DNA of 64,000 bases, from the IMG/VR virus record IMGVR_UViG_3300011008_000071, positions 32,001-96,000 of that record. One strand, 5' to 3'. The notes under the pieces were generated by a model, which did not search any database, was not told the origin of the DNA, and saw nothing but the letters and a program-made list of their open reading frames with translations. Within the stretch, counting starts at the first letter, position 1. Every line of letters begins with the position of its first letter. The stretch is from a virus (lineage: Duplodnaviria; Caudoviricetes). Position numbers and translations under genes: made by a program. Shown one piece after another: positions 9,273 to 60,547 of the stretch.

Positions 9273-9281
9273 ATTGTGTGT

Positions 9282-39579: not shown

Positions 39580-39629
39580 CCAAGTCTCTTGATTCTCCCT
39601 TCCGCGGTCGGTTTCAGGGAGAGGCGGGC

Positions 39630-39703
39630 GCCAATAATCCAGTAGGAATAAGACACAGTACTATTCAGGAGGCACGAGAAAGCACCAGATCGAGCACCGT
39701 CAT
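39630..39703 (-). repeat. 74-bp dispersed repeat, copy 1 (DGR variable-region-like)
   Basis: Exact reverse complement of 60264-60337; minus strand reads DGARSGAFSCLLNSTVSYSYWIIG and continues ARLSLKPTA. Confidence 0.85.
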
Positions 39704-39720
39704 CTCCCCTATGAATTTTA

Positions 39721-41154
39721 TCACATATTGAATTGATGAATTTCTTTTACCAGAGTTTCGATCTTCTTCATACGTGAGCGATGCCACCATGTATTCGGAG
39801 GAACTGCGCGGTCGATTATATCCCAATAGTAAGTGTCCTTATCCGGAGCATATTCGCGCAGACGGCCAATCATTTGTTCCGTTACAACTTTGGACGCAAT
39901 GGGTTCCGCACATATCACTGTACGTAGGCCTTTAATATCCTTACCTGTACCACAGGACTTGATCGTTGACACAATGATATCCTTCTTAATAAGACCTTCT
40001 TCTTTTTCCTCCTTATCCATTTTAGAATGATAAGGTGTCACCGACTTTTCTGGGAAGTCGGTCTTTAATCTTCGTACTACTTCATCCACACCTTCAATGA
40101 TTGGTAAGAATATTATAGTCTTTCCTTCCACATCTTTCGTCTTCTTAAGGATTGAAAGAATCGTTTGATATAGCGTATCTGACTTATCCTGAAACAAAGC
40201 ATATCGTCCATACTTCACGCTGGAGAATCCTGGATAACTCATAAGCTGCGCTCGGGCATGTGCAGTGATCTTGGAATATACATTGACGGCGTGATAAACC
40301 ACATGTTTCCGTTTAACTTTCTTGGATTCTTCTTCACCATATGGAATTACAGACTGAAATGCTCGTTTGAAACATTTGGATTCTGATTTATCCGAACGAT
40401 CGAACGTTGCCGTAAGATACCATGTTCTATCCGTATTGGAGAAGAAGTCTATTAATAGAATATTGGCAAAGTCCATATGACTCTCATCATATACTTTTAC
40501 TCCGATATTCAACTTCTTGAAGAATTGATGAAACACATATCCGTTCGTCTGATTGAGGAATGAATGAAGTGTTTGGTGATTCACGAAGTATGCTTCTGCC
40601 GGTTTAAGCTGGTCATTCAATATGGCCTGAATAATCCCCGAGCCTGAAATGTTGCACAGCTCGGATTCTCTGAAGCCAAACATCTTCTGATACGTATTCA
40701 TCCACTGTATCTTCAGACCATCTGTCGGAGTTATGATTAATGCTCTTAAATGTAATTTTACACACGTATAAATAACACAGAAAGTTTTACCCCATCCAGT
40801 GGAGATGTTTAGCGAGAGTTGCTGGTATCGTTGTTGAGTGTCCTCCAAAAACTTTATACTCTCTTCCTGAATTTCATTACGAGGTTCATATAATGGAGAA
40901 TGGTAATTATCCATCTCTTCAGATGGATCGGAATCATTAATGAACTTCGCTTTTACACCCAGGAGATCTTCCAACCTGGATATGGAAGTTCCTCTTGGGA
41001 TATACAACTTGCCATTGTCGATAAGATAACCACATGGGAAATCATTCCCACTGAACTTATCCTGGGCAGTATACATATTCTCAATTACGGGAAGATCTCC
41101 TTTGGAATATGGATATATTTCAATATGTGTATTATAAATATCAAGATTAGTCAT
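39721..41154 (-). CDS. uvsW: UvsW-like superfamily II DNA helicase
   Basis: STGWGKT (motif I), YDESH (II), LTAT (III), QMIGRLR (VI). Confidence 0.85.
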   Translation of the reverse strand: MTNLDIYNTHIEIYPYSKGDLPVIENMYTAQDKFSGNDFPCGYLIDNGKLYIPRGTSISRLEDLLGVKAKFINDSDPSEEMDNYHSPLYEPRNEIQEESIKFLEDTQQRYQQLSLNISTGWGKTFCVIYTCVKLHLRALIITPTDGLKIQWMNTYQKMFGFRESELCNISGSGIIQAILNDQLKPAEAYFVNHQTLHSFLNQTNGYVFHQFFKKLNIGVKVYDESHMDFANILLIDFFSNTDRTWYLTATFDRSDKSESKCFKRAFQSVIPYGEEESKKVKRKHVVYHAVNVYSKITAHARAQLMSYPGFSSVKYGRYALFQDKSDTLYQTILSILKKTKDVEGKTIIFLPIIEGVDEVVRRLKTDFPEKSVTPYHSKMDKEEKEEGLIKKDIIVSTIKSCGTGKDIKGLRTVICAEPIASKVVTEQMIGRLREYAPDKDTYYWDIIDRAVPPNTWWHRSRMKKIETLVKEIHQFNM

Positions 41155-41223
41155 CGTTTCTCCTCCTATTGAAATTATATATTCTCAACTTGTAATGAAA
41201 ATATATCATTAATAATTTGAAAG

Positions 41224-42873
41224 GTGGGAATGTTAAAAATGAAGGATGTATTTTCGCAAATGTATTTCAGTGATACACTCAAGATCAAGGTGTGTAGATC
41301 CGGCAACTATGTATACCCTGTACCGATGAAGAGTTCGTTACCGGACAAAGAATACCTGGCAACACTGGAGTACTGCAAGATCGGTATAGTAGACGAATAT
41401 ATGAATCATGTATACCTGAAACATGTGAATGATTCTGTATTTGAATATACTCCTGATAAGAGCGATCATGTTATTAGTGACATCAATCGTTGGAGGAATT
41501 CGATCAGCATTTCATTACGTCGTATATCCAGGCTTGTCGACCTTCATAAGGAACCCATGGAGTTCTATATGCAGTCGGATCACTACTCACTTCGGTTGTC
41601 ATTGATTGACGACCGTGTTGAAGGTAATTCCTTCATCGTACATATGTATCTGGCGGATGATGCGGATAAGTTCATCCAAATGTGTATGATTAGTATTGTC
41701 ACCGATAAGGAAAGAACGGCTGATGGAGCAGCAATCATGGTATATGGATCCAGTACAGCATATTTCATGTCTCCTGTACGAAAGACTGCTGAAAAGATAG
41801 CAAACGGTTACAAGTCTGCCACATTGAACGGATTGGTTGGTACTTATGAAACATATCTGATCGATTGCGTTCTCAATAAGCTCTACGAATGTATTTGGAA
41901 TAATGATAAGCAAACAATCGATTACACATATACTCCGATCGAGATGTGGATGTTCAAAATGATCATGAAAGATCTCGGGAATGAAACATGTACCCATCGG
42001 ATATTCACTTGGGCACATGAAGAGGATCTGTCCAAGGATCTCTTTCTGGATGACCAGGAGCTCCCTGAATACGCAATCATAAACACCGATAGCTTTCCAT
42101 TGGTCGATTTCTCGGAGAAGGAGTGGAAGTTCGTAGACGGTTTCTGTAAACGGAATAACCTCTTTGAAGATGCTCCAACAAACATACTTCCGTACTTTGC
42201 TCAGCCGAGATATGGTAAAGTATACAGAATGGACGTAAGTACATCCGATGACAAGAAAGTCCCGTTGACAATAACATTCAAACTCAATGAAGAAAAGCGG
42301 TATCTCAAAATGTACATCGTAGAAACTCTAGATGAAAATACATATGTGTACGCAACCGTTGACTGCTCTGATATTGATCAATACACCCATGAGAACTCTG
42401 TGCGACGTTTGAGCAAACATGTATTGTACACGAAACTCACAGCAATGAGACCAACTGTCCGGGAACTGATCCATGATTCGTCGCTGCTTCAATCCGGTAT
42501 TGATAATACATCCTCTCTAGTAGGAGAGATACTGAAACTGTTTGCAATCATGTATCATAGACCGGAACGTAGCAGAATGATCAAGTGTGTTCGGCATCAT
42601 GAAACTGTCAAACATACAAAGCACGGTATTAAGCGTGAGCAGAAAGAAACGATATGGCGAATTCTGAAACCAACCAAAGAGGCAAAAGAATATGTATCCC
42701 AAATGAGTTCAGGCAGTGCACATCGACAGGCGGAATACACTCTTGAAGAGTGGCCGCGTATTGGATACAGTTACACAACAAAGACCGGAAGAGTTGTATG
42801 GGTTCCTCCTACAACATGCAGACGGCATGAGGACCTCCTGAACAAAGACAAAGAAATCAAAATCAAATTATAA
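41224..42873 (+). CDS. Hypothetical protein
   Basis: 549-aa ORF; basic C-terminal GYSYTTKTGRVVWVPP segment. Confidence 0.75.
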   Translation: MGMLKMKDVFSQMYFSDTLKIKVCRSGNYVYPVPMKSSLPDKEYLATLEYCKIGIVDEYMNHVYLKHVNDSVFEYTPDKSDHVISDINRWRNSISISLRRISRLVDLHKEPMEFYMQSDHYSLRLSLIDDRVEGNSFIVHMYLADDADKFIQMCMISIVTDKERTADGAAIMVYGSSTAYFMSPVRKTAEKIANGYKSATLNGLVGTYETYLIDCVLNKLYECIWNNDKQTIDYTYTPIEMWMFKMIMKDLGNETCTHRIFTWAHEEDLSKDLFLDDQELPEYAIINTDSFPLVDFSEKEWKFVDGFCKRNNLFEDAPTNILPYFAQPRYGKVYRMDVSTSDDKKVPLTITFKLNEEKRYLKMYIVETLDENTYVYATVDCSDIDQYTHENSVRRLSKHVLYTKLTAMRPTVRELIHDSSLLQSGIDNTSSLVGEILKLFAIMYHRPERSRMIKCVRHHETVKHTKHGIKREQKETIWRILKPTKEAKEYVSQMSSGSAHRQAEYTLEEWPRIGYSYTTKTGRVVWVPPTTCRRHEDLLNKDKEIKIKL

Positions 42874-42877
42874 GATG

Positions 42878-42911
42878 AAAAGAAAAGGCGGATACGTCCG
42901 CCTTTTCTTTT
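42878..42911. terminator. Bidirectional Rho-independent terminator
   Basis: AAAAGAAAAGGCGGA-TACG-TCCGCCTTTTCTTTT. Confidence 0.75.
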
Positions 42912-42915
42912 GTGT

Positions 42916-43434
42916 TTAAATTACCTGATATGGGATGTTCATGGTGAATGCCGTGTTCGGTATTGGGGTTTCAAACTTCTTCCGCACAACCAGAATCACC
43001 TTTTCCCGTCTGATGACCTGATACGAGAAGTTGGTGAATTCCGTCTTGCGGAGCTTGACTGGGAATATTTTCACATTGATTGGAATTGTGTACTCAAATC
43101 CCTCGATCTTTAGATGGACTAGATCACCTGAATACATCTTCTCCGGGTCGATTGGAATCCAGTCATCGTTCATGATGCTAAAGTATGTGAACTTGTCTTT
43201 GTATGTCAAGTCTTTAGCAGGATCAAATGGCTGAAGTGTATCCTTGAATTCCGTTTCCATTAATGCTGCCCATAGATCAGGTTCAACTATAATTGCCACT
43301 GTACCATCATCCTTCTTTGGAATGATAATTGTCTGATTTTGGTATAATCTGGGTGATGATAGTTTAGACCGTTTCATGATATCATTAAATATCAATATGG
43401 AGTCTTTAATAGTGGGCTCTTTCGCTTTGGCCAT
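42916..43434 (-). CDS. Hypothetical protein
   Basis: 172-aa ORF, AGGAGG RBS. Confidence 0.7.
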   Translation of the reverse strand: MAKAKEPTIKDSILIFNDIMKRSKLSSPRLYQNQTIIIPKKDDGTVAIIVEPDLWAALMETEFKDTLQPFDPAKDLTYKDKFTYFSIMNDDWIPIDPEKMYSGDLVHLKIEGFEYTIPINVKIFPVKLRKTEFTNFSYQVIRREKVILVVRKKFETPIPNTAFTMNIPYQVI

Positions 43435-44189
43435 ATTTTGTTTCCTCCTATATTAAGCTTCTTTGGATTTATCCATGGTTCATTCTCCAGTAACCTATTA
43501 AGATAGTATTCTGTAGTCTTCTTTGATTCTTCCTCTCCATCCTTACCGGCAATAAGTCTGGTGCAGTGCAGTCCGAAATTGAAATGGAGTTCGTTTCCTG
43601 TTAAACCAAACACAGCCTGTTCAAGATCCATCAGTACTTCCGTTTCTCTCCAATTGATTTTCAGATAGTTTGATGATAGCTTATCTGCCAATAAGATGAT
43701 ATCGATGTATCTTGTAGTCTGTATAGGCAATGACTGATATACTTCCATTATTGGGCATGAATGAAACATTACTGGATACAGAATCTCCGGGTCCTTGATT
43801 CCGAACTCTTTGTACAGGAATATTCCTCCTGCTAGTGCATGATACTGAGCAGATGAATTGAAGTACTCATCCATGTTGAACTTCTCCAGTGTATCCAAAT
43901 TGTTTCTGACATACAGGGTTGTGGATGTAGGGATTGATATCCCTTTGTATTCCCGAGTCGTTTCAGTGAGCCCATGTTCTTTAAGTATGTCGTGTGCATA
44001 TGCAATATATGCCAGCTTATGTTCATCCAGTCTATAGCCCAATTTCCGATTTAATATCAGAGCATATTGTTTCACCAAATCGATGTGTGCCCGGTGATAC
44101 TCTGCATATTCCTTCTTGGGATCGGAATGGATGAAGTCATTTATTGCCAACAACGACCTCAATTCCAAATCCAACTTTTCATGTAACAT
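43392..44189 (-). CDS. HD-domain phosphohydrolase (YqeK-like)
   Basis: H...AHDILKE...HALAG...FHS...LADKL. Confidence 0.75.
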   Translation of the reverse strand: MLHEKLDLELRSLLAINDFIHSDPKKEYAEYHRAHIDLVKQYALILNRKLGYRLDEHKLAYIAYAHDILKEHGLTETTREYKGISIPTSTTLYVRNNLDTLEKFNMDEYFNSSAQYHALAGGIFLYKEFGIKDPEILYPVMFHSCPIMEVYQSLPIQTTRYIDIILLADKLSSNYLKINWRETEVLMDLEQAVFGLTGNELHFNFGLHCTRLIAGKDGEEESKKTTEYYLNRLLENEPWINPKKLNIGGNKIWPKRKSPLLKTPY

Positions 44190-44314
44190 ATATATTTCAT
44201 CCTTCCTTTCATAATGATTCATATTAATAATATATAATCGTATATGAAAGATTCAAATCGATATATTATTACATTGAGGGAAATCAAATGATAGCCGTAA
44301 AGGAGGTTAATATT

Positions 44315-44986
44315 ATGGCTAAAAAGACTAACAAAAACAACTTCGATATCTTCCAGATTATATTCTGGGGAGTATTAAGCATTGCAGTAATTGCAATCAT
44401 CGTTGGGGTGATCATCTTCACAGTTAATCAATTCAGAGAAATCGGGAATACCATTGAAGGGAACCCGACAACTACTGCGACCGAAGAGTCAACCACGACG
44501 ACAGCAGAATTCCCGACATGGAATGGCGAGGATCCTGGAGTTGCACTTGGCGCTGTAGATCTTACGAGATACACAGACAGACTTGTTGCTACACCTGATC
44601 TGAATTTCCAGATAGGAAACGAAACAATCAGAATCGGTAATGACATATTCCTGCACAAACTCCCTGGGATGTCCCAGGGAGTTTCCCTTCTTACATCTGT
44701 AGATGCATGGGATGATTATGTAGATGCAGAAGGACTTGGGAGATCATTCACCCATGCAGGAATGTTTGCTGTCAACTGCAAAGATGATTACATGATTGCT
44801 GGAACGGAAATTGGCAAACGCTACCTCATCGTCACAGAAGATGATATGTTCACAGTCAAGGTTGACAGAGAAGTCACAGATGAAGAAACTCATGCGGTAT
44901 CGAATATCAAATACATATATGAGATCGAAGAATCGTATGTCGAAGAAGAATACCCAAAGACAGATGGGCATGGGAATCTGATCTGA
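44315..44986 (+). CDS. Membrane-anchored protein with Thr-rich linker
   Basis: N-terminal TM helix IIFWGVLSIAVIAIIVGVIIF; TTTATEESTTTT. Confidence 0.75.
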   Translation: MAKKTNKNNFDIFQIIFWGVLSIAVIAIIVGVIIFTVNQFREIGNTIEGNPTTTATEESTTTTAEFPTWNGEDPGVALGAVDLTRYTDRLVATPDLNFQIGNETIRIGNDIFLHKLPGMSQGVSLLTSVDAWDDYVDAEGLGRSFTHAGMFAVNCKDDYMIAGTEIGKRYLIVTEDDMFTVKVDREVTDEETHAVSNIKYIYEIEESYVEEEYPKTDGHGNLI

Positions 44987-45101
44987 CCGTATATTCCATA
45001 CATATGGGCATATATTATTAATATGAGGATACGAGAAGAATGTATCTTGATGGAGAAATCAAACGTACAAATCCAACACACATTGACAGGAGGAATTATC
45101 T

Positions 45102-45374
45102 ATGAAAAAGGAAAGAAATCTCACAATGGAACTTCAGAAGGAAGGACTCAAGGCACTTAAGATTTACAACGGCATGCTCATTGGCAGCGCAGTTATGACA
45201 GTTGCAGGACTCGGCATCATGGGCTACATTGCAGTAAAGCAGAAACTCGGAGAGCTTGAGGATGACGGCCTGTGGGCTCCCAGCGACAGCTTCGCTGGCT
45301 GGATTCAGAAGCACAAGACTGAAAGCGACAACACAGACGAAAATACCGAAGACGATACACCTGACGAGGAGTAA
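45102..45374 (+). CDS. Small membrane protein with acidic tail
   Basis: One TM segment; AGGAGG RBS. Confidence 0.7.
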   Translation: MKKERNLTMELQKEGLKALKIYNGMLIGSAVMTVAGLGIMGYIAVKQKLGELEDDGLWAPSDSFAGWIQKHKTESDNTDENTEDDTPDEE

Positions 45375-45469
45375 TCCTCATTTGTGATTTCCCCATCAGA
45401 AGGAAGCGGCCCCTCAATGCCGCTTTCTTTTTGCCACTGAAATGTAATATTTACAGGAGGTGATCCGTA

Positions 45470-46006
45470 ATGGATTGGAATAGTATATTTTCGAGTGGCG
45501 TTATAACACCAATATTGGGTGCAATTGTCACAGTAATTGTGGGCTATCTAGGGTGGAGACTGAATAAAGTATCGAAGGCTGCCATGGCAAAGAATGTAAT
45601 GGCAGAGATGGAGAAGAAGAACGGAATCAGAAACCAAGTAATGGATCTGATATCGAAGAATGTCAAATCGGCTGTAGAGTCGAATATGCAGCTGGCTGAC
45701 AGTATGAAACAGGCCGGGCATAGCCTTGATCAGGATGAAATTAAGGCTCTTAACAATTCTGCCAAACAGATGGTTCTGAACAACCTTCCGTTGGAACTCA
45801 CGAACTCTGATGGTGTTCTGTGCGAGATCATAGGCGGTGTAGACAAATTGAATTCCATCATAGATACAATGATGGAGCAGTATGTCTACGAGATCAAGCT
45901 GGCGAAGCTCCAGCAGAAGCCCGATACAATTTCCCAATCACTCCAGGACTATATCAACGAGAAGTCCAATAAACCTAAGGTAACAATCAAGCCTACTAAG
46001 AAGTAG
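45470..46006 (+). CDS. Single-TM protein (possibly holin-like)
   Basis: N-terminal TM helix, helical soluble body, basic tail; holin role is only a guess. Confidence 0.6.
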   Translation: MDWNSIFSSGVITPILGAIVTVIVGYLGWRLNKVSKAAMAKNVMAEMEKKNGIRNQVMDLISKNVKSAVESNMQLADSMKQAGHSLDQDEIKALNNSAKQMVLNNLPLELTNSDGVLCEIIGGVDKLNSIIDTMMEQYVYEIKLAKLQQKPDTISQSLQDYINEKSNKPKVTIKPTKK

Positions 46007-46111
46007 TATTACAGGGACCCATCATGGGTCCCTGTAATTTCACGTATATATTATTAACTTAGGAGGATATGAGGGTAAATCTTCCAAAAATACAGAAAGG
46101 AATGATATAAC

Positions 46112-46744
46112 ATGGATGAATATCCAATACTTAAAGGAATATTCAAAGAGGGTACAGAAGTTCTTATACCTGAACTACATTACGAAAGCGGAGTAGTATT
46201 GGGTATCGTTGATAAACAATATTTGATTAAGCTTGATGATGATACTATACTGCTTCCTGAGTATTCGTTGGAGTTTGCAGATTTGCTTGATACGCCAATC
46301 GATACGGAGCTGATATATGAGGAATCTGATTTACTTGCTAAATCGAATTCAAGAAACAAATATAAATGGACACTCCCAGACGGAATTCCTATAATCGGGA
46401 AGCCAAAGCTTCCACATTTGATATTCTGTGTCGGGAGCGATGAAGGGCCCATTCCTCATGCTCATATATTTAGGACAAAGGAAGATAGTATTGCATGGTT
46501 CAATGGTGCATGTTTGATACTTAATAAGAATATGTATTTCGATCATGCTCATAATGATAAGTCATTGACTAATAGAGAATTGAATAGTGTCATTGCAAAG
46601 CTATCTCAATTGAGGAATGATACAAATCGAACATGGTGGGATGAAGTAATAGTTCAATGGAATAAAATCAACGATTTTAAAATTCCATCGAATCTTCCTA
46701 TGCCATCATGGAATGATGGACATATCAAGAGAATGCATGAGTAG
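46112..46744 (+). CDS. Hypothetical protein, PHxH paralog family member
   Basis: SDEGPIPHAHIFR...GACLIL...YFDH...TWWDEVIVQWN...MPSW. Confidence 0.75.
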   Translation: MDEYPILKGIFKEGTEVLIPELHYESGVVLGIVDKQYLIKLDDDTILLPEYSLEFADLLDTPIDTELIYEESDLLAKSNSRNKYKWTLPDGIPIIGKPKLPHLIFCVGSDEGPIPHAHIFRTKEDSIAWFNGACLILNKNMYFDHAHNDKSLTNRELNSVIAKLSQLRNDTNRTWWDEVIVQWNKINDFKIPSNLPMPSWNDGHIKRMHE

Positions 46745-46754
46745 GAGGTATATT

Positions 46755-47426
46755 ATGGGTAGACCAGAATATCCAGACGGGACCAGAGTTTACAATATTG
46801 ACACTGATGAATTTGGGCATATACTATCATCACGTCATATGATATCATGGAGAAAATGTAATTGTCATGACCCGTATATTTATAAGATACAATACGGCAA
46901 TCATGTATCTGCAAGTAAAGGTTCTGCTCATTTATGTTCAGGAGAAATACGACCAGATGATCCAAAAGAACTTGCAGTCGGCAGACGATTTACTGAACGA
47001 ACGGTGAGATTCTTTAAAGGAACTGCAGGCTATTTAAATGTATTTCCATTCATCGTTGAATCCACTGGACATGAATTATGGTTTGATGTTGAATGGCCAT
47101 GCTCCGGACAAACACCGCATCTCCATGTATGGAGAAATGAAACCGATGCCCGCAATTGGGCAAATGGCTTTTCATTGTTGCTGAACTCCAATACATCATA
47201 TGAACATGACTTGTCGACGATTAATGGGACATCTCAAGAAGAACTTGATACAATTACAAACGCTTTCAATACAAAACTGATATCGGATGATGTATCTATT
47301 CAGACGTTATGGGAACGATTTATGAATGATTTAGCCGAAGCCGGCGAAGAGTATACTAAGTACAAAGATTATATATCCCCTCCATTGTATGATCTCAGTA
47401 CTATGGATAAGGTGTATACCCTATAA
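46755..47426 (+). CDS. Hypothetical protein, PHxH paralog family member
   Basis: TPHLHVWRN...NWANGFSLLL...TLWERF...PPLYD; AGGAGG RBS before 46755. Confidence 0.7.
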   Translation: MGRPEYPDGTRVYNIDTDEFGHILSSRHMISWRKCNCHDPYIYKIQYGNHVSASKGSAHLCSGEIRPDDPKELAVGRRFTERTVRFFKGTAGYLNVFPFIVESTGHELWFDVEWPCSGQTPHLHVWRNETDARNWANGFSLLLNSNTSYEHDLSTINGTSQEELDTITNAFNTKLISDDVSIQTLWERFMNDLAEAGEEYTKYKDYISPPLYDLSTMDKVYTL

Positions 47427-47433
47427 TATCAAC

Positions 47434-47466
47434 AAAGAAAAGGGTGGATCTCCACCCTTTTCTTTT
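47434..47466 (+). terminator. Rho-independent terminator
   Basis: AAAGAAAAGGGTGGATCTCCACCCTTTTCTTTT. Confidence 0.75.
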
Positions 47467-47509
47467 GTATTTGACCTACCGGATTTATAATCTTTACTAA
47501 GAAAAGGAG

Positions 47510-48938
47510 ATGGAAAGTATGAAGATATCCATACTTGATGTCGACCGACTTATCGAGGTTAATAAGCTGGAAGAGGTCACTTCACAACATCTGTTTTCAA
47601 ACAAGATGATGTATGACCCTCAGGGGATATTATCCACCGATATTTTCGGTATCTCAAAGAATGACAGACGGACTACGTTTGCATATATTAGCCTGAAGAA
47701 GAAATTCATTCATCCTCACATATACACCAAGGTGTTGAAGCCTATGTTCAAAAACATCGTGTATATCGTTGCTGGGCAGAAGCGGTATGTCATCGAGAAC
47801 GGATGGTTCAAAGAGGACAAGGATAATGGATGGACTGGGCTGGTTTCTTTGTATGATCATTGGAATGAGATTGACTGGTCTCAGAAACGTTCCGAAAATA
47901 AGATCAATAAGGAACTTCTTACCATACTAACCAGAGATCAGATATTCCTTGATAAGATCATCATTGTTCCCCCGGCATATCGTGACGTAATGTTGGCTGG
48001 AACAGTTGATGCTTCGGATCACGTATCAGAATTGAATGAAATGTATCAAAAGTTAATACGTGCTGTGTCAATGATACAGGAAGGCGGATTATTTGCCAGG
48101 ACCCAGTATGGGGCCCAGCTCAAGATACAGAATCTGCTATGTGATATTTCAAAATTCTTCTCAGATCAGATATCGAAGAAGACCGGGTTGATCCGTAAGT
48201 ATCTAATGGGTAAATCCGTTGATTACGGTACCCGTGTCGTCATCAGTGCTCCTACATACAACTTTGATCGCTTCGGAGATAATATGATTGATGTAGAACA
48301 CACGGCAATCCCCATTGAGATATGCTGCTCCACGTTCTATCCATTCATAGAAGCATGGTTGAAGAACTTCTTCACCAAGGAAATCGTGAATGATCCAAAC
48401 ATGTTTACTTTCTATGATATTGAAAATAAGAGAGAATTCACAGGAGTCATCAAAGACGTAGATATCCAGTTCTCTGAGAAGAATATCAGGAAGGTGATCA
48501 ATGATTACTGTCTGAATCCGGATAACCGATTCAAGATGATTACGCTGGAAGTCATTGCTCCTGGAGCAACGCCAAAGGAGAATAAGACTCTGAAGGCAAA
48601 TCTGGTATTGAAAGGAAATGTTCTTCTTCCTAACAATATCAGGCAAGTCCTGAATCGAGGAATGACCATTACGGACCTGCTGTATCTGGCATGTGTGGAT
48701 GTCTGTGAAAAGAGACACGTAATGGTATCCAGATATCCTGTCGGTACAGATAAGGGAATATACTTCTCGAAGATCAGAGTTCAATCCACTCCAAATCATA
48801 TCCGTCTAACATTCAATGGAAAAGATTATCCGTATTATCCGGATATAAATCTAAAAACACCAATTGATCAAGTTGGTGTGCAATTCATAGATACTTTAGT
48901 TCCATCCAATTCACACTTGGATGGTATGGGGGCCGATT
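47510..48938 (+). CDS. Phage multisubunit RNA polymerase beta'-like subunit, exon 1
   Basis: GILSTDIFG, PPAYRD, KTGLIRKYLMGKSVDYGTRVVI, RYP, GMGADY (first half of catalytic DxDGD). Confidence 0.9.
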
Positions 48939-51643: not shown

Positions 51644-51737
51644 TATTTTTGAATATATATTCTTCTATTGAATCGAATATAATTCTATTCAATCCTAACA
51701 TAGTTCATTAACACTCGTAACAAAGGAGGAAGTTTAC

Positions 51738-52505
51738 ATGAGTGAAATTATGATCAAATCACAATGCCCGAAGTGCGGAGAAGAACTCGCACTCAAGGCA
51801 AATGTGCCGGACGTTATGCCGGCACAGGTCAGATCCGGTATGCAGCCGATCGGATCGATTCAGGTGTATAAGATTACATCTGAAATGATGAAGGAATTCA
51901 TTATCGCAAAGGCTAAGAAGTACTGCCCGGCGGTGAAGATGGAGATCGTGCCCAGATACACCGAACGCAAGCCCAGGCCGAATGAACCTCACAGAGCATA
52001 TGCATCGCTGCGTATTGCCTTCTCGGAAGAGGCAATGGAGAAGAAGGAAGACTATGGATTCTATGACCAGATAGGCGAGTCCAATCTCACACCTCATCTC
52101 CAGCCGAGCATCTTCCAGAACCTGATTCGTATGTACGGCTACAATCCTAAGGACATCAATGAATGGCTGCATTCGTACAAGAACATGGAGAAGCTTGAAG
52201 AGGCTCTCGGTATCACGGAAGCATACATCGACGATCTTAAGAAGTACGCAACACCGCGTCTGGTTAAGTCCAACGATGATCACAAGTGGATCATCTTCTC
52301 TGCTGCTGCTGAGAACGTAATCGCGGATATGCTTACAGATGTTACAACCAACGAGGTTGCCGGCAGAATCCAGATCCAGGATGTATACCAGATCAGCAAG
52401 GACATTGTCGAGTTCATCGTTTATCTCCATCCGGCTACAATGAAGATCAAAGAGAACCCGCACGTTCGTCAGATTCTTCTTGGTGAGGAAAAGCCCAAGA
52501 AGTAA
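51738..52505 (+). CDS. Hypothetical protein (N-terminal CPKC)
   Basis: 255-aa ORF, AGGAGG RBS, C-ending codon bias suggesting high expression. Confidence 0.8.
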   Translation: MSEIMIKSQCPKCGEELALKANVPDVMPAQVRSGMQPIGSIQVYKITSEMMKEFIIAKAKKYCPAVKMEIVPRYTERKPRPNEPHRAYASLRIAFSEEAMEKKEDYGFYDQIGESNLTPHLQPSIFQNLIRMYGYNPKDINEWLHSYKNMEKLEEALGITEAYIDDLKKYATPRLVKSNDDHKWIIFSAAAENVIADMLTDVTTNEVAGRIQIQDVYQISKDIVEFIVYLHPATMKIKENPHVRQILLGEEKPKK

Positions 52506-52562
52506 ACAGTTATATACCTAAAGCTTTAGGCATATTAATAAACATACAAGGAGCAATTGCAA

Positions 52563-52796
52563 ATGAAGGGTAAAGTAAAGTGGTTTGATGTTAACCGTGG
52601 ATTTGGATTCGTTGTTAAGGAAGATGGAACGGAGACACATATATCCGCTCGCAACATCAAGTCCGGCAGAACTTTCGTTGGTCTCACTGCAGGAGACACG
52701 ATCGAGTTCGATGAGAAGAAGTTCCGTAAGGGAATGGAAGCGGTAAATGTTACGCTGGCCGAGGACGATAAGGCTGAAGCAAAGACCGAAGAATGA
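52563..52796 (+). CDS. Cold-shock domain protein
   Basis: KGKVKWFDVNRGFGFV...HIS...L..GD.IEF...AVNV. Confidence 0.9.
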   Translation: MKGKVKWFDVNRGFGFVVKEDGTETHISARNIKSGRTFVGLTAGDTIEFDEKKFRKGMEAVNVTLAEDDKAEAKTEE

Positions 52797-52800
52797 TGTA

Positions 52801-52833
52801 ATGACCCCGGGGAGATTATCTCCCCGGGGTCAT
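52801..52833 (+). terminator. Rho-independent terminator
   Basis: ATGACCCCGGGGAGA-TTA-TCTCCCCGGGGTCAT followed by T-run. Confidence 0.7.
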
Positions 52834-52891
52834 GTCTTTTCTTTTGTCAATACAAACACTCATGGTAACTTTTGTGAAAGGATATGATCAT

Positions 52892-53461
52892 ATGCCAAAA
52901 ACAATTTTTATGAATAAATCTACCGATGATAAACCGGCTTCCACACCAACTAACGTTAGACCATCACCACAACCTGGCCAGAAACCTGGGATGAAGATTA
53001 GCCCACCTAAATCTCCACAACCTTCCCCGCAGCCTAAACTAAGTCCTCAACCAAAGTCGCCTGTTAAACCAAAGGCTGTTCCAGCACCGATTGAAATCAA
53101 AAAAGAAGAACCGGCACAAGAACCGCCGAAGGAACTTAAGGCTGGACGGAAGAATATCAATATGCAAACATATATTGATACTCCGGATGATGATTGGGGT
53201 GTAATGGCTCCTGTACACAAAGCTGTCGGTAATGCATTACCCAAGGTCACTAATCCCGTTCTCACTGTTCCCGTAAATCCACCTAAGGGCGAATCCATTG
53301 ATAAACCGTTGTATGTGTTGGACCAGGATGGTTTAAATACTCTAATATCATCTCTGGTGAATGAGTTATCAGAGAGATTCGTTACAAAAGAAGAAGTTCA
53401 AACACTGGTTCGAAACAGCTTGCAAACAATGGTAATGGAACAAGTACGTCCGAAGAAGTAA
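52892..53461 (+). CDS. Pro/Lys-rich hypothetical protein
   Basis: SPQP repeats; RBS before the ATG at 52892. Confidence 0.7.
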   Translation: MPKTIFMNKSTDDKPASTPTNVRPSPQPGQKPGMKISPPKSPQPSPQPKLSPQPKSPVKPKAVPAPIEIKKEEPAQEPPKELKAGRKNINMQTYIDTPDDDWGVMAPVHKAVGNALPKVTNPVLTVPVNPPKGESIDKPLYVLDQDGLNTLISSLVNELSERFVTKEEVQTLVRNSLQTMVMEQVRPKK

Positions 53462-53462
53462 C

Positions 53463-53492
53463 AAAGACACCCGGGATATCCCGGGTGTCTTT
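53463..53492. terminator. Bidirectional hairpin between convergent genes
   Basis: AAAGACACCCGGGATATCCCGGGTGTCTTT. Confidence 0.7.
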
Positions 53493-53496
53493 ACTG

Positions 53497-54795
53497 TTAA
53501 TAATCGAGAGATCTGTCATCAAATTCATTGCCTGGTTCGATGAAGGGTAGATGACGGTTAAGATCGGGTATGATATACTTCTTGACATTTTCCCAAATAG
53601 GCTTTTCTTTTGCCTCCTTGTAAATGTCTTTGAATGTGAATGTAAATGAGTCGTCGCCTTTGAATTTGAGACGGTTACGGTTACCTTCGATGATTCCGTT
53701 CTCTCTTCCATATGACACCAATGACCTCAGATTGTCGAAGCCGTATTTGTGGCTGAATACAAGTTCGAATGATATACCTTTGGAGTTATTTCCAGACTGA
53801 TTAGATGAGGATTTCACCGGTTCAACCATGACCATATGTCCAGATATACCATCAGCTTCTTCCGTAAAGTCGTCGCCTGGACGAGCCGTAAGCTTGATTA
53901 TATTGAATGGGTAGTATATCATTGTTTTTCCGCCTGGGATAGACTCATCCTGTTTAAGATAATTCTGCTGTCTGGCTACTGGTATGAAAGCATTCATGCT
54001 CATATTTGTATTGATATGGTTGATACCATATACGATAATATTCGCTTCCTTGCACATCGGAAGAATGTCTTTGAAGAAGCCTTTCATTGTCTTGGCATCT
54101 CTTGCGCCTTCGGTATTACCACGCATTGCTTCAGCAGCCGCAGCTTCTTTGGCATTATCAGGATTGAATGTTTCATTCATTACTGTGGTAATTGAATCGA
54201 TGATGACTACTGTAGGTTGGAATATTACAACGTCTTTACCGAACTCATCTTTGAATCCGGAATTGACCAGAAGCTGGTCTTTAAGCTTCATCTTGGATAC
54301 ATACGTCTTGACAATCATCTCCTGAATCGTATCCAGTCCGACCATACCAGAACGAATCATGTATCGCTCATTCTCAAAATACTGAGAGGGAAGACCAGTG
54401 ATGGTCTCGGCCCTGGATACATCGAAACGGTTTTCGCAGTCGAAATGAATGACATTGGCATACTTGTATTGTCTTATGATATTTGCAGCTATCTGTGCGG
54501 CTAAGGTCGTTTTGCCGCTCCCGCTGTTGCCAATGATGAGGTTAAATGTACCGGCAGCCTGGCCTATGCGTGCCTCCTGTTTTTCCAGTCTTCCTAAATC
54601 ATCATGTATGTTTATGACAGAACCGAAGTAGTAATCGAACAATGGATACCCCGTCTTGATGAACGCGGTGCGGACATTGGTATGAAACAGATTCTTCTTA
54701 TCATTGTCACGTAATGCAGTAAGTAACGGATTGAATGTAGATAGATCCTCCTGCTGTTGCATGATAGTATCAAGTGCATCATTTTTCTTAGCCAT
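53497..54795 (-). CDS. uvsX: RecA/UvsX-like recombinase
   Basis: IKTGYPLFD, GNSGSGKTT (Walker A), FDCE, VIIDSIT (Walker B), INH, IPGGK. Confidence 0.88.
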   Translation of the reverse strand: MAKKNDALDTIMQQQEDLSTFNPLLTALRDNDKKNLFHTNVRTAFIKTGYPLFDYYFGSVINIHDDLGRLEKQEARIGQAAGTFNLIIGNSGSGKTTLAAQIAANIIRQYKYANVIHFDCENRFDVSRAETITGLPSQYFENERYMIRSGMVGLDTIQEMIVKTYVSKMKLKDQLLVNSGFKDEFGKDVVIFQPTVVIIDSITTVMNETFNPDNAKEAAAAEAMRGNTEGARDAKTMKGFFKDILPMCKEANIIVYGINHINTNMSMNAFIPVARQQNYLKQDESIPGGKTMIYYPFNIIKLTARPGDDFTEEADGISGHMVMVEPVKSSSNQSGNNSKGISFELVFSHKYGFDNLRSLVSYGRENGIIEGNRNRLKFKGDDSFTFTFKDIYKEAKEKPIWENVKKYIIPDLNRHLPFIEPGNEFDDRSLDY

Positions 54796-54900
54796 ATTTA
54801 GGCCTCCTTAAATCATTTTTTTGTTTACCCATTCGGGTTCAGAATATATCATTATCTTATCGGATATTTAATATGGCCCAGGAATTCCTGGGCCATATCC

Positions 54901-55902
54901 TTATTCACTACATCTTGGCAGGAATTGACTCGTGTAATATATGGTAGGTTTGTCAAAAACCAATCTAGGTATCTGGATAGGTCCTTCAATCTTTTCAGTC
55001 TTGACGATCCCAAATGTTCTACGATGTTCCAACGATGGGTACATATAGTTTTTGACAATTTGTTGTTCAAGATATGACCAGTAGAAGAAGCCTGGATACC
55101 TGGCAGCATAGTCCAGAACATTGAGTTGATATTTGATTTTATCATTATCATATTCAGGATATTCTTTGAGCTCACATGGAATACCCATGCTCCATATCAT
55201 CCACTGTAACCATTCAAGTCTTTCTTTGGACCAATGGTTTACCGACACCTGATCCGGTGTTAAATCCTTTCTGTAGCCGATATCAAATGCTCCTCGGATG
55301 AATTGCACCCTGTCCTTCTTCCATGCAAACATGTACTCCAATGGGATCGGTGTCGAAGCAATACAGTGTGTCTTGGCAAAGAAGTTGTAACCCGGGAAGA
55401 ATTCATCCCATGTAATGCGGTGATCTGTGTCTTTGCCCTTCCACTGGAAATACAACTTCCCAGTACCGATTGTAGGAAAGTATTCGATATTGTATGTATG
55501 TGAGAGATTGTTATTCACTTCATATCTACCGGAAGGAAGATTCAGATATGGGTCATTGTAATCTCCATACATGAGCAATGCTCCGGCTACATATGGATCT
55601 GGATACAGCGGTTCCGTAATCCGTTTCCGATCAAACTCAACTTCATATAGAAAGAATGCTCCTTCTATTCCATCTTCTGGAATGTCCTTTGCATGCTTAT
55701 ATACTCCTACAGGAATATACTCACAGCATCCATATACATCTTCCCTGCCATCTGAAAATGTTATCTTAACTCCTGAATCAAATGTTACAGTATCTATGCT
55801 TCTAACTTCTATAGGATTTCCTGTTCCATATTCATATACCGTATCTCCAATAACGACATCTGTTACTGGTAAAATTCCTCGGGTTGTGATTACTTTAAAC
55901 AT
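54901..55902 (-). CDS. Free-standing degenerate intein-like protein (Hint + LAGLIDADG remnants)
   Basis: KVITTRG...DVVIGDTVY (block A tail), KITFSDG (block B), DPYVAGALL, IPLEY, RVQFIRGAFD, C-terminal YYTSQF; lacks Cys1 and terminal His-Asn. Confidence 0.7.
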   Translation of the reverse strand: MFKVITTRGILPVTDVVIGDTVYEYGTGNPIEVRSIDTVTFDSGVKITFSDGREDVYGCCEYIPVGVYKHAKDIPEDGIEGAFFLYEVEFDRKRITEPLYPDPYVAGALLMYGDYNDPYLNLPSGRYEVNNNLSHTYNIEYFPTIGTGKLYFQWKGKDTDHRITWDEFFPGYNFFAKTHCIASTPIPLEYMFAWKKDRVQFIRGAFDIGYRKDLTPDQVSVNHWSKERLEWLQWMIWSMGIPCELKEYPEYDNDKIKYQLNVLDYAARYPGFFYWSYLEQQIVKNYMYPSLEHRRTFGIVKTEKIEGPIQIPRLVFDKPTIYYTSQFLPRCSE

Positions 55903-56010
55903 GATTCGTATCCTCCTTTTGTAAGGTTATTATTAGCAATGGGTTTGAAACAGGCATATTAATCAGAGCCTGCCCGGCTCAATTATTTAACATTTATGAG
56001 GAGAATTACT

Positions 56011-57081
56011 ATGGAAAAGGTTAAAAACACAACAGCAGAAGATGTCCAGGCTTCTGTTAGCTCAATATATTCTGCTTTGATTGGAAAACGGAAAAAAGAT
56101 AAGGAAGCAAAGGAAGAAGAGAAACGTCTTGCAAAGGAGGCTAAGGAAGCAGCCAAGCAAGATAAGAAGGATGATGAAGAAGAAAAGATTTCCAAGCGTG
56201 CAAAACGTGAAAAGGAACTGGATGCATGGAAATCTGTGTTCTGTGAACTTACCGGAGATGATCTGGAATATGTCGGAACCAAGAAGAAGAAAGGTAAAAA
56301 GAAATACAAGAAATGGATCGATGATGATCTCGAGAATGAAGTTCGAGTTCAGAAGGCCAAGAAAGTAAAGAAGAAAAATTACCGCAAAGAATTTGAACCT
56401 GAACTGAACATGCTCAAGACACTGCTGGCTGAACAGAACCGCATCAATGCTGATATGTTGAAGCGTTTCCAGAATGCCGCAGGGCCAGCAACCAAGGATG
56501 CGATGTTCCCGAATAAGACACTCGTGGAGCTCATGGCTACCATTAATGCTGGTAAGACCAACTCTCTTTCTATGTTGAGGGAAATCGGGAGTCTGAAGAA
56601 GGCTGTGGCCGATCTGGAAATGAAGAGGAAGAAGATGGAGCTGGATGCTGGAGGCAGCAATAACGATAGTATGGATCTCGGATTAATGGGCTCTTCCCTG
56701 GCATCGAATATGTTCATGGGCTCTACTAATCCATATGCATCCACCCCTGTATCTAATCCTGTTGATTTGCCTGTATCAACACCGAATATTCCTCCTGTTA
56801 CGAACACTTTCACTCTTCCAACAGAGGAGTTTGATCCTGCCACATGGGAAGGAATCCCTGGGGCTAGCGAGTACAACTACGAGGACATTCCTCATGAGAT
56901 ATATGTGGAGCAGAAGGGTGATACAGGTGAGAAGAGATTCGTTGCTGTTCGTACCGACACCGGAGAAGAGATCAATATTCCGAATCTTCCAACGGTTGAT
57001 CCTAACACCCTTCCGGTAGATGAGAAGAAAGGTACAGTAAAGGGAAAGTTTGAAGAAGTATACAAACTGAAAATTGTATAA
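56011..57081 (+). CDS. Hypothetical protein (highly charged N-terminus)
   Basis: ~356-aa ORF, GAGGAG RBS. Confidence 0.75.
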   Translation: MEKVKNTTAEDVQASVSSIYSALIGKRKKDKEAKEEEKRLAKEAKEAAKQDKKDDEEEKISKRAKREKELDAWKSVFCELTGDDLEYVGTKKKKGKKKYKKWIDDDLENEVRVQKAKKVKKKNYRKEFEPELNMLKTLLAEQNRINADMLKRFQNAAGPATKDAMFPNKTLVELMATINAGKTNSLSMLREIGSLKKAVADLEMKRKKMELDAGGSNNDSMDLGLMGSSLASNMFMGSTNPYASTPVSNPVDLPVSTPNIPPVTNTFTLPTEEFDPATWEGIPGASEYNYEDIPHEIYVEQKGDTGEKRFVAVRTDTGEEINIPNLPTVDPNTLPVDEKKGTVKGKFEEVYKLKIV

Positions 57082-57095
57082 GGGAGTGATACCTT

Positions 57096-60000
57096 ATGAA
57101 TTATACGAATTCTCGAGAGACATCCCCTCTTCAGAATTTATTCGTTGATGTAAAGAAGATACTCGACTTCCTGGTTGTTAAGGATAACGAAGCGGCAAAG
57201 GAAGCCGAGACGGATGAAAGTAAATGGCTGGCATATGCATGGATGGATGCACGGATGCATCATGATGATTATACCACATACAAGAAGTTTTGGACAATCG
57301 ATATGTTCCAGCAGGTTGCTCCTGTGACGAAGCGGGAATTCAACTTCTATGTTGAACATCCGGACAGAGTGGGACTTAAGTTCCGTGATACGCTTCGGAC
57401 ATTGGGTAGAGAGAAGTTCTTAGAGTCTTACGTAGAGAAGAATAACTACTATCGAATGTTACAGGGTCTTCCGGATGTCGATGATACCGATTACATATAT
57501 CTTCCAACATCTCTTCAGGAGAAGTATGGTTTGACAGAACGTACTCCTGTGCATGAGTTGGATGAGTATCTCCAACGGCGGTATATGAACACCGATGAGT
57601 ATGCCAAAGTCGTTACAGATAACCCTAGTAAGAAGTATCTTCAATTCCTTGGAAATAACAAGGTTGACCTATACACTGCTAGGAATGCCAAAGACTTTGA
57701 AATCATTCGGTATCCAAACAATAGAGCAGATATCAATCCGAACCTGCTATTGTCATTTGCTGAGTTATATTCCAATTACCGTGAGTATGTGATGGTCGTT
57801 TTGTACAACCCCCAATTTGAGAATGTATATGACTATTACAGGACATTCATGGGAACATTGATCCTGGAATATACATTACTTCAGATTGGCAACTCTGCTT
57901 TGGAAGCCGTGAATACACACAAGTATCTGGATGATTCTGTGCTACATACGATACTGTCGATGTATGGAATTCCGGATTCATTAATCATGAACCGGAATAG
58001 CAGACGTGATCTGGCAATCAACATTCTGAAATTAGTCAAAGAGAAGGGAACGAATGATGTTTACTATGATATCATTCGGATTCTGGGCTACCAGGACGTT
58101 GCAATATCCAAACTAGTTCTGATGAAGGGGCAAGAATTCGATTCCAATAAGGATGCTTTAAGCACCGTCGATCCATACTTCCTGGAGATTGATCTGAAAG
58201 ATCCCAACCCATACAATACAATCACCAACGGGAAGGCAAATAGGTATTCGTATCATGACATCATCTCCGGGGATCAGAGTTGGTGGGATACCCCAGATGT
58301 CCAGAAGATTTTAAAAGAATCAGATTACTCCATGATGGACACCAAGTATATCACCATTGAGGCAACGATTAACCAGATGCAACATATGTTGGAAATGATA
58401 TACTTCCCCAGAATGATTCTGGATAACAAGTCCGTAGCCGAGGATCTGGAGATTGAGATTCCTGAATTGTTTGGTACCAATACCGTTCCCGTATATGATA
58501 TCATTCTATTCATCATCTCGGCACTATGTCTGGAGACGAAGTCAGAAGCAAAGTTCGTTGATGACAACTCATTGCAGGCTGTAGCCGGTTTCAACTTTGA
58601 TATCAAAATGGATTCGTTCAAAGAATTTCTGGATACGACTTCGTATGTCGATAAGGCCCAGATCATGAAGTTCATGAATGCAATCAATATCGGAAATCTG
58701 GATGACATTACCAGGGTCTTCTCAGATGTGATAATTCCAATGAGGGAATGGCTAGAACGGAAGGTTGTCAATGCGTCAACCAGGGAAGAATTCCTGGAAT
58801 ATGAATCCATATACAGAGCTCTCTTCTCATATGACATTGCCAAGAACTCTGTCGTAGATGATATGAACTTCAAAACACCTTTGGAGATCATATGTGAGGA
58901 ATATGGTATTTCCGAAGAACAGATAAAGGCATATCAGCACTTCTACCCAAGACAGCTGTCTGGAGAAGCGGTGCTAGATTCTGAATTCGAAAACTCCCGC
59001 TATGCAAACTCAAACGAATTCCGTTCCAAGATTGCATGGAAGTTCAATATCACTGTTGAGGTCGGCTCCAAGATTGACCAGCGTGGTTTCATATATTTAC
59101 ATGATATTCTGAACTACCATGACTGCCGGGATATCCCGTGCTATGTAATGGGCAATGACGGAACATACCATACTGAAGGTAGAATGTTCATGGATTATAT
59201 TTCCGAAGAAGAAGGATGGGTCGTAAACCAAGACGTTGTTAAGAAGGTAATTGAAAAGATAAACTATCTGGATGATAATCAGTTGAACGGGGCATATTTC
59301 GTTGCCGATACACCGATCATCAACTCTGGTGGACAGTGGTACAATTCCGGAACGAAACTGTCAAAGATTTCTCCCGTATTCAAAAACATTCTCATCGAGA
59401 AGATTCAATTGGATATGGATGGGAGAGCCGACCCAGCGGACAACTATTATGAACTCCTAAGAAGGAGAAATACATTGCTTTACAACACGTTATTCGGCAT
59501 AACGAAAGACCGATATAACCGTGAACCAGAAGCATGGCTTAACGATGTAATGTCTGTATTCACCTCCCTGGAAACGGAATTGTCCATTCATCTTAAGTAC
59601 TATGAACATTCTGTACTTGGAAAAGATATGTTCTTTAAACCTTTGATAACTCTCATCAATCATTTCAAATCAATGATGGTTCATATTGCCAAGACAGGCG
59701 TAAGATACATATTCGACTCCAAGATGGACATCACTGGTACATCGAATATGTTCCGACTTTTCGATGATACCAGTATGACTATCCATTTCACCACAATTGC
59801 CAACTCCGGCTTCACCTCCGAATTTGCATTGTATGATACTATTCCATCTACAAAAAGAAATATCATAATCAAAGATCAAACTAGGTTAATCAAAGAAACG
59901 GTTGGATCTGGATTTGCAACGGAAGTAAGAACACGATATGATGGATCAATTCATATGGTGGATGAAGCCAAATTCTATATCAATGGGAAACCGTTGGATC

Positions 60001-60167
60001 CTAATGATCATGCTTCACTATGGTTCAATGGAGAACCTGGAACTGGCCGTTGGTCGGAAGAAGATGACATCCTGGTACGTACCAGGATGGGTCAGGAACG
60101 TATCAAAGATTATAAAGTCGATTATGAAGGATGGAAGGATTTTATAATTTCACAAAGTCCAGTATGA
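57096..60167 (+). CDS. Virion structural protein, baseplate-wedge-like
   Basis: 1023 aa; NNYYRML and LVKEKGT (KGT motif typical of myophage wedge proteins). Confidence 0.65.
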   Translation: MNYTNSRETSPLQNLFVDVKKILDFLVVKDNEAAKEAETDESKWLAYAWMDARMHHDDYTTYKKFWTIDMFQQVAPVTKREFNFYVEHPDRVGLKFRDTLRTLGREKFLESYVEKNNYYRMLQGLPDVDDTDYIYLPTSLQEKYGLTERTPVHELDEYLQRRYMNTDEYAKVVTDNPSKKYLQFLGNNKVDLYTARNAKDFEIIRYPNNRADINPNLLLSFAELYSNYREYVMVVLYNPQFENVYDYYRTFMGTLILEYTLLQIGNSALEAVNTHKYLDDSVLHTILSMYGIPDSLIMNRNSRRDLAINILKLVKEKGTNDVYYDIIRILGYQDVAISKLVLMKGQEFDSNKDALSTVDPYFLEIDLKDPNPYNTITNGKANRYSYHDIISGDQSWWDTPDVQKILKESDYSMMDTKYITIEATINQMQHMLEMIYFPRMILDNKSVAEDLEIEIPELFGTNTVPVYDIILFIISALCLETKSEAKFVDDNSLQAVAGFNFDIKMDSFKEFLDTTSYVDKAQIMKFMNAINIGNLDDITRVFSDVIIPMREWLERKVVNASTREEFLEYESIYRALFSYDIAKNSVVDDMNFKTPLEIICEEYGISEEQIKAYQHFYPRQLSGEAVLDSEFENSRYANSNEFRSKIAWKFNITVEVGSKIDQRGFIYLHDILNYHDCRDIPCYVMGNDGTYHTEGRMFMDYISEEEGWVVNQDVVKKVIEKINYLDDNQLNGAYFVADTPIINSGGQWYNSGTKLSKISPVFKNILIEKIQLDMDGRADPADNYYELLRRRNTLLYNTLFGITKDRYNREPEAWLNDVMSVFTSLETELSIHLKYYEHSVLGKDMFFKPLITLINHFKSMMVHIAKTGVRYIFDSKMDITGTSNMFRLFDDTSMTIHFTTIANSGFTSEFALYDTIPSTKRNIIIKDQTRLIKETVGSGFATEVRTRYDGSIHMVDEAKFYINGKPLDPNDHASLWFNGEPGTGRWSEEDDILVRTRMGQERIKDYKVDYEGWKDFIISQSPV

Positions 60168-60244
60168 TAATCCACCAAAAATAAAGTATATCATATAAAG
60201 CCGGGCGCCAGGGATGGACGGGGCAGGATGTGGAAAGAGGGGCG

Positions 60245-60547
60245 CTATTCGGTGGTGACTCGTATGACGGTGCTCGATCTGGTGCTTTCTCGTGCCTCCT
60301 GAATAGTACTGTGTCTTATTCCTACTGGATTATTGGCATAAGGTACGGCGGATTTAATCCAATCAAATGCAACGAATTTGAAACTACCATTTCCTGCATT
60401 GGCATCTTCGATAGAATCGAATACGGTAAGATCCACTCCACTATTACAGAAGGATTTGATCTTTCCTATGACAATTTCATTTTTGGCACACTCGATGATT
60501 AACAGTGTCCCGTCTGTCTTGAATTGTTCCAACTTCTTTTGTCTCAC
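60245..60547 (-). CDS. Hypothetical protein whose C-terminus runs antisense through the 74-bp repeat
   Basis: 100-aa ORF with GTG start; last ~30 codons overlap the repeat. Confidence 0.5.
   Translation of the reverse strand: MRQKKLEQFKTDGTLLIIECAKNEIVIGKIKSFCNSGVDLTVFDSIEDANAGNGSFKFVAFDWIKSAVPYANNPVGIRHSTIQEARESTRSSTVIRVTTE
60264..60337 (+). repeat. 74-bp dispersed repeat, copy 2 (DGR variable-region-like)
   Basis: Identical, in inverted orientation, to 39630-39703; preceded in frame by ALFGGDSY. Confidence 0.85.

Follow-up and report, generated by a model that had tools for sequence, protein, structure and literature searches.

Two exactly matching 74-nt segments in a jumbo-phage contig are probably both variable repeat (VR) copies of a diversity-generating retroelement (DGR) encoded on that contig, and would be bystander acceptors that spread by duplication or recombination at the DNA level. 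The stretch analyzed here (hereafter the window, 64,000 nt) comprises bases 32001-96000 of IMGVR_UViG_3300011008_000071, a 118,713-bp linear viral record (C1) estimated to be 44% complete. The two segments, or arms, lie at 39630-39703 on the minus strand (copy 1) and at 60264-60337 on the plus strand (copy 2). A repeat search of the window and direct reading both find them 100% complementary over 74 nt, which bears out the two identical copies in inverted orientation described in an earlier note on this DNA; they form the sole long inverted pair of the window, and a 74-nt exact match within 64 kb cannot be chance. The positions of the open reading frames (ORFs) place each copy 3′ of an unrelated gene and in the sense of that gene, as the note also had it, and neither copy lies within a target gene. 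Their flanks differ, copy 2 retaining a 5′ side that encodes ALFGG and copy 1 a 3′ side that encodes ARLSLKPTA, and this part of the earlier reading was likewise confirmed.

The retroelement itself was found outside the window, approximately 22 kb before its start and 61-82 kb from the two copies. Copy 2 and its flank, used as a query, have three further look-alikes on the record, and a single reverse transcriptase (RT) ORF was found, at record positions 8810-9919 on the minus strand (PF00078, 2.7e-23, 78.8 bits; phrog_1423, 5e-99). An adenine-tolerant scan located the template repeat (TR) at about 10154-10243, ~235 nt upstream of the RT, and the ORF upstream of the TR (10610-12220, 536 aa) ends in a VR and was matched end to end by the tail protein family phrog_5302. 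This tail protein has no match in a Pfam search or in a PDB sequence profile, and 440 homologues share its C-terminal domain. The AlphaFold model of its closest canonical homologue (P0002, predicted local distance difference test score 77) is most similar to TaqVP (5vf4, E 1.3e-11), followed by Mtd and formylglycine-generating enzymes (FGE), and from this model the target protein is predicted to have a C-type lectin (CLec) fold. The statement that the window holds no RT, Avd or full target is correct for the window, but an RT and a full target are present on the same record beyond it, and a reading of the copies as detached from any DGR is not supported. The adenine-specific TR, the RT and the complete VR-bearing gene that the earlier note had proposed to look for were all recovered. 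Between the TR and the RT, a stretch at C1:9984-10064 (minus strand) resembles the Rfam RT-18 RNA below threshold (27.7 bits, gathering threshold 41.3, E 0.05) and may be a spacer structure of the DGR RNA.

The pattern of differences from the TR carries the assignment of the arms to this retroelement. Of the TR adenines, 14 of 25 are changed in copy 1, as against 2 of 53 other bases (Fisher p = 4e-7), and in copy 2 the figures are 15 of 27 adenines and 2 of 59 other bases (Fisher p = 8e-8); when the three independent variable sequences of the record are pooled, p = 9e-25. The changed sites fall mostly in AAY codons of the TR. Over all 10 elements of the family described below, 8-17 TR adenines and 0-2 other bases are changed. 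These differences, found almost only at adenines, together with the RT and a target with a predicted CLec fold, uphold the earlier identification of the copies as DGR variable regions. In a sequencing run from another study (X3), a homologous repeat with other bases follows the virion gene and is in turn followed by the initiation of mutagenic homing (IMH) element; where it departs from the window sequence, the site is a TR adenine or one of the two non-adenine changes, at which it has the TR base again. This run is evidence that the non-coding copies may still be undergoing diversification by the DGR.

Both arms belong to a larger family. The record contains five VR elements (E1-E5), and only E1, at the end of the tail gene, lies within a gene. 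E2 is a complete non-coding module at about 23150-23310 of the record, E3 is copy 1, E4 is copy 2, and E5 is a module at the very end of the contig. Five further VR elements are present on a 168-kb contig (G001), bringing the number of VR copies for one TR to at least ten, nine of which are outside any gene. No VR but E1 ends a protein gene; the two window copies lie in no gene and thus belong to the VR set but not to the target genes. The elements are of two kinds. Full modules, of which there are at least six (E2, E4, E5 and three in G001), consist of a TATAAA-containing box, a GC-rich leader and then the full 90-nt repeat; the first 8-10 nt of the leader are complementary to the IMH, and the leader start is predicted to pair with it in the fold of each module. 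The truncated type (E1, E3 and two in G001) starts at TR positions 11, 11, 27 and 35, and all keep the IMH; the tail-gene VR matches only the last 79 nt of the TR and begins at the same TR position as copy 1. The 27-nt IMH follows seven elements (E1, E2, E3 and four on G001), and IMH plus terminator close every full module that has a visible 3′ end, although in one of them (G1_113.5k) the IMH is cut off after 8 nt. On each contig all full modules are on one strand and all truncated elements on the other, an arrangement with a chance of ~1/256 if orientations were free, a figure qualified by the fact that the orientations follow the sense of the upstream gene.

No full module lies in a gene, and a TAG in the VR frame occurs just upstream in E5 and in G1_66k, one of the full modules of G001. 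Translation of the modules was considered and rejected, given the absence of a conserved start and the in-frame TAG in two of them; the genome otherwise reads well in translation table 11, with ORFs of 3025 and 1023 aa. A search of the module region against Rfam gave no match, nor did scans of metagenome contigs with IMH patterns, and scans of viral contigs for the junction flanks and the TR returned nothing beyond G001. The tail protein itself is unusual: canonical homologues read ...NIKSG-TTFALVGGHSH-TGAGAGVF..., this protein reads ...NIKSD-HGAKDGAF..., and it is without the ALVGG strand and the next few residues, which are encoded by homologues, TR and non-coding modules alike.

We also considered whether G001 is an independent, distant relative, and rejected this; it has no orthologous genes in common with the record, all differences between its five elements and this TR are at adenines, and it shares its terminal 85 nt with the record. 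More likely, it is another part of the same phage or of a sister phage (estimated completeness 62% for G001 and 44% for the record). The shared 85 nt are a GC-rich stretch between two genes of the record (C1:16055-16139) that is 100% identical, reversed, to the last 85 nt of G001; here, too, a contig ends in a dispersed repeat.

Copy 1 lies in the 3′ untranslated stretch of a helicase gene (39721-41154, minus strand; PF00270, PF04851, PF00271, phrog_16), beginning 17 nt past the stop codon and ahead of a strong bidirectional intrinsic terminator (39547-39579) that serves both the helicase and the ORF at 38916-39533. The matches to DEAD, ResIII and Helicase_C domains agree with the helicase named in the earlier note, though they do not establish it as uvsW. 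The arm is homologous to TR positions 11-86, with its 5′ end truncated. Directly after it comes the 27-nt IMH-type recognition end (GGCGCCCGCC...GAAACCGACC; 39606-39632, minus strand), from which the TR diverges after GGCGCC, and then a hairpin with a 7-bp stem (CTCCCT.../...AGGGAG; 39592-39622, minus strand). The predicted DNA fold of this hairpin is unexceptional by energy alone (-7.3 kcal/mol, z only -0.8), and the same hairpin occurs in 4 of the 10 elements. The helicase stop and copy 1 are separated by 17 nt (39704-39720, minus strand) that bear a weak likeness to the tail-gene coding sequence just before the VR, in a gapped local alignment too weak for use. An IMH and a hairpin suffice for DGR targeting (Guo 2011, PMC3240598), and because upstream sequence is dispensable under these known rules, copy 1 should remain able to take up cDNA.

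Copy 2 (60251-60337, plus strand) is homologous to TR positions 1-87, includes the arm at 60264-60337, and is situated ~100 nt past the stop codon of a 1023-aa gene in the same sense (57096-60167, plus strand). The sole match of this gene is phrog_20751, a virion structural protein, which does not sustain the earlier designation as a baseplate-like gene. Between gene and repeat lie a promoter-like sequence, AGTATATCATATAAA (60185-60199, plus strand), common to E4, E5 and G1_66k, and a GC-rich 5′ leader (60200-60250, plus strand) that is nearly identical in E5 and G1_66k and opens with a 10-nt stretch (GCCGGGCGCC), 9 positions of which are complementary to the IMH. The motif TATAAA(A/G) also occurs just ahead of the ribosome-binding sites of other genes on the record. 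The open frame through copy 2 begins only at 60185 and offers no possible start codon but a GTG at 60230. In this assembly copy 2 has neither IMH nor hairpin. It is joined at 60337/60338, with ~3 nt of possible microhomology (GGC), to the 3′ end of a convergent small gene, forming a 100-aa ORF (60245-60547, minus strand) in which the final 30 codons read copy 2 and its 5′ extension in reverse complement, the native part being 60338-60547. As assembled, copy 2 thus appears to be the 5′ part of a non-coding module that lost its IMH end and became fused to a small neighboring gene.

Both copies entered loci that are empty in a relative. The earlier note had suggested a comparison with related phages, and in one of these (G002, 52-64% protein identity) the same gene neighbors occur at both loci and the element at neither: the helicase is followed by a terminator directly after its stop and then by a homologue of ORF205, and the virion protein directly by a terminator and then by a homologue of ORF186. 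Because G002 has the same order without the elements, both window copies are insertions and the as-assembled order is ancestral. A related DGR occurs in the lineage of this relative, with a VR that lies in a tail gene, as is normal, and reads ...RFALFGG.... The end of G002 lies 56 nt before its RT gene, and a further relative, G003 (IMGVR_UViG_3300032167_003698), ends inside its VR (31839-31928); DGR repeats seem to break these assemblies regularly.

How the two copies came to be identical can be narrowed down from the variable bases. Copies 1 and 2 agree at 74/74 bases, including 10 retained adenines. Given random mutagenesis at adenines, an identity of this length means that the two loci were not diversified independently, and because all 10 adenines are kept, at least one copy arose at the DNA level and not from a separate mutagenic cDNA. 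One copy would thus have been made from the other, or a third full module would be the source of both, in either case since the last round of mutagenesis. Two further pairs are identical in the same way, and the same DNA-level derivation would hold for them: E1 in the tail gene and the module E5, 108 kb apart, are identical over at least 77 nt, and in G001 a truncated element (G1_30.4k) and a full module (G1_66k) share 91 nt, in which the IMH and part of the hairpin join 48 nt of variable sequence. The edge of this 91-nt repeat is also the exact point at which a third contig, from another sample, breaks off. Three of the four truncated elements therefore have a full-module partner with the same variable sequence, and the partner of the fourth may lie outside these contigs.

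The history that we favor would begin with the RT copying the TR RNA with errors at adenines, the resulting cDNA overwriting DNA that ends in an IMH; the adenine-specific pattern of the arms would stem from such TR-templated mutagenic cDNA. Copy 1 is a 5′-truncated VR with its IMH and hairpin, inserted between the helicase stop and the terminator, and both copies would be members of a family of at least ten elements spread and homogenized by copying at the DNA level, possibly through fresh partial duplication near the IMH and hairpin. Beyond this, the system may conceivably have two tiers, although we give this extension little credence: the DGR would rewrite a bank of promoter-led non-coding modules, in which the leader-IMH stem presents the repeat, and recombination would then move finished variants among modules, truncated copies and the tail gene. 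If so, the phage would not depend on one VR but keep a stock of receptor-binding variants for later use.

Other origins for the arms were weighed against the same evidence. The earlier note had offered ectopically integrated cDNAs, with stored cassettes for gene conversion and 3′-UTR decoy RNAs as conceivable alternatives. The differing start points of the truncated copies (TR positions 11, 27 and 35), all of which keep the 3′ end, could suggest that each copy is an independent cDNA or a retro-copy of module RNA made by the DGR RT, with 5′ truncation as in long and short interspersed elements (LINE/SINE). Agreement at every base, including 10 adenines in the 74-nt pair and many more in the 91-nt pair, is nevertheless unlike the product of an adenine-mutagenic RT, and independent events of this kind are extremely unlikely. 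A perfect inverted repeat that brackets 20.5 kb might also mark the crossover sites of an invertible segment, by homologous or site-specific recombination, the more so as a flip would rebuild one complete module. An inversion of the 20.5 kb as the source of two half-elements was rejected, since G002 has the as-assembled neighbors on both sides of both arms. No joint in the alternative orientation was seen at the one locus checked, and a hypervariable sequence is unlikely as a recombinase site; we consider an invertible segment very unlikely. A reading in which the modules encode small structured RNAs with an effect on the DGR itself (for instance by sponging cDNA or RT), copy 1 being a fragment of such a gene, would explain the promoter-like box at every module head, the pairing of the leader start with the IMH in every predicted fold and the terminators after full modules. 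It is set against the absence of an Rfam family match, the absence of any RNA run among the public runs with the sequence, weak fold z-scores for the long-leader type (-1.0 to -1.4) and too few independent sequences for covariation, and we judge it improbable. Unlikely, too, is the idea that the DGR-diversified modules are silent cassettes that exchange variable sequence with the tail gene and the truncated copies by recombination, thereby storing receptor-binding variants. This would account for the identity of the tail-gene VR with E5, for the full-module match of each of the three truncated elements, out of four, that had a partner searchable in these contigs and for modules that cover the full TR when the tail-gene VR covers only part of it. 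But there is no homology 5′ of the truncated copies that would resolve a conversion tract, the E1/E5 identity gives no direction of transfer and comes with no recombinase evidence, only two contigs were examined, and two of the three truncated partners are themselves non-coding.

Several observations count against DNA-level spread of DGR repeats as we propose it. The truncated copies have nothing in common with the modules 5′ of the variable stretch, which leaves ordinary gene conversion, as a mechanism for site-to-site copying, without 5′ homology. No Pfam match, whether to Avd or to HRDC, was found among the small ORFs around the RT and TR, in a record that is 44% complete. The remaining points concern the assembly at copy 2, the one locus covered by our check of public-run contigs (Logan). 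In the best-matching run (X1; 0.92 of sampled words, depth ~6), the left flank stops in the shared leader, and ahead of the right flank (60336 onward) stand 46 nt unlike the variable sequence, among the matches listed. The piece 60239-60337 is matched without mismatch in a contig where 1388 nt of other sequence come before it and the IMH comes after. The merged form of the two copies given in the earlier note exists as a single piece of DNA in a public run. Neither the right junction of copy 2 nor its leader variant at ~60227-60237 was seen in the X1 Logan contigs among the matches listed. The Logan contig with the piece 60239-60337 spans the start of the 74-nt stretch unbranched, an argument against the presence of this sequence at copy 1 in run X1. 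In two other runs the sequence before the right flank gives the small convergent gene a natural stop, and this gene is 72 aa long on three other contigs (including a 108-kb ENA and a 26.5-kb JGI contig) and 100 aa only here. Finally, a 1760-nt JGI contig (P0124) encodes a helicase identical to that of the window from residue 31 but fused to 78 unrelated N-terminal residues resembling a bacterial membrane protein, and is a chimeric contig of the same data set. It is in this light that an assembly artefact has to be taken seriously, in which the identity, or the structure of copy 2, arose from a chimeric or erroneous path of a k=77 de Bruijn assembler at a low-coverage spot rich in repeats and hairpins, the true second locus being a complete module that ends in IMH and terminator. 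Besides the low depth, both junctions of 60239-60337 missing among the listed matches, the fused ORF unique to this contig and the chimeric helicase, it would fit the convergent genes at copy 2, which have no terminator between them, unlike in G002, and the end of the contig after exactly 77 nt shared with E1. This shared end fits a k=77 graph, so that the 74-nt repeat was just short of breaking the contig. Against it, a de Bruijn path requires real reads across each junction, the copy 1 junction cannot stem from shared k-mers because its upstream flank is unrelated, and an identical pair is present in the separately assembled G001, at whose repeat boundary the contig from another sample stops. 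We regard an artefact as unlikely, although by no means negligible. Under our preferred reading of the arms as DGR repeats spread at the DNA level, the 60337/60338 junction is either a rare deletion variant or an assembly mis-join, and the intact second locus most likely ends in IMH and terminator.

The arrangement is in many respects that of the DGRs of BPP-1 and Hankyphage, with an RT beside an intergenic TR, differences at adenines and mostly in AAY codons, a tail protein target with a predicted CLec fold, a GC-rich IMH after the VR that is absent from the TR, and a hairpin after the IMH in many copies. It differs from them in having at least 10 VRs per TR, up to 108 kb away and nine of them outside genes, six with a promoter-like box and GC leader, and pairs that share a variable sequence; moreover, no Avd was detected with Pfam. 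In Treponema, Legionella and CPR bacteria, DGRs have several remote target genes. DGRs with “secondary targets,” in which one TR serves several VRs across the genome, have been described (Roux 2021, PMC8144416). Such multi-target systems resemble the present one in having one TR for scattered VRs, but their VRs end protein genes, whereas here they are mostly non-coding. Gene conversion from silent cassettes is the basis of variation in the pilE/pilS and vlsE systems. These likewise have scattered unexpressed copies of a variable segment, one identical to that of the expressed gene; here, in contrast, variation would come from reverse transcription rather than an ancestral store, the cassettes have promoter-like heads, and no conversion event was observed. 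No description of non-coding or paired VRs was found in the literature searched.

DGRs are understood as diversifying the C-terminus of one or a few proteins, and nine of at least ten repeats being non-coding would mean that the mutator also rewrites DNA without coding function; the word orphan, applied to the copies in the earlier note, holds only as non-coding. Should these features prove real, non-coding elements are either hit by stray DGR targeting or make use of it, and there is DNA-level movement of variable sequence from locus to locus. This bears on target counts in DGR surveys, where non-coding VRs are usually dropped, on what an IMH alone does in nature, and on the banking of receptor-binding variants by phages. 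It also indicates that DGR repeats shape metagenome assemblies, with contigs ending in repeats and junctions inside them needing read-level proof.

Two other repeated sequences were noted. Terminators near-identical to one another (AAAGAAAAGG-stem-CCTTTTCTTTTG) occur in the window at 42879-42929, 47434-47484 and 39547-39579, and also in G001, including right after truncated VRs. A recurrent AT-rich box, TAATAATATATAAT, is present in the window at 1042-1072, 44219-44249 and 61608-61638, and also 60-90 nt upstream of E5 and of one G001 module; it looks like a phage promoter.

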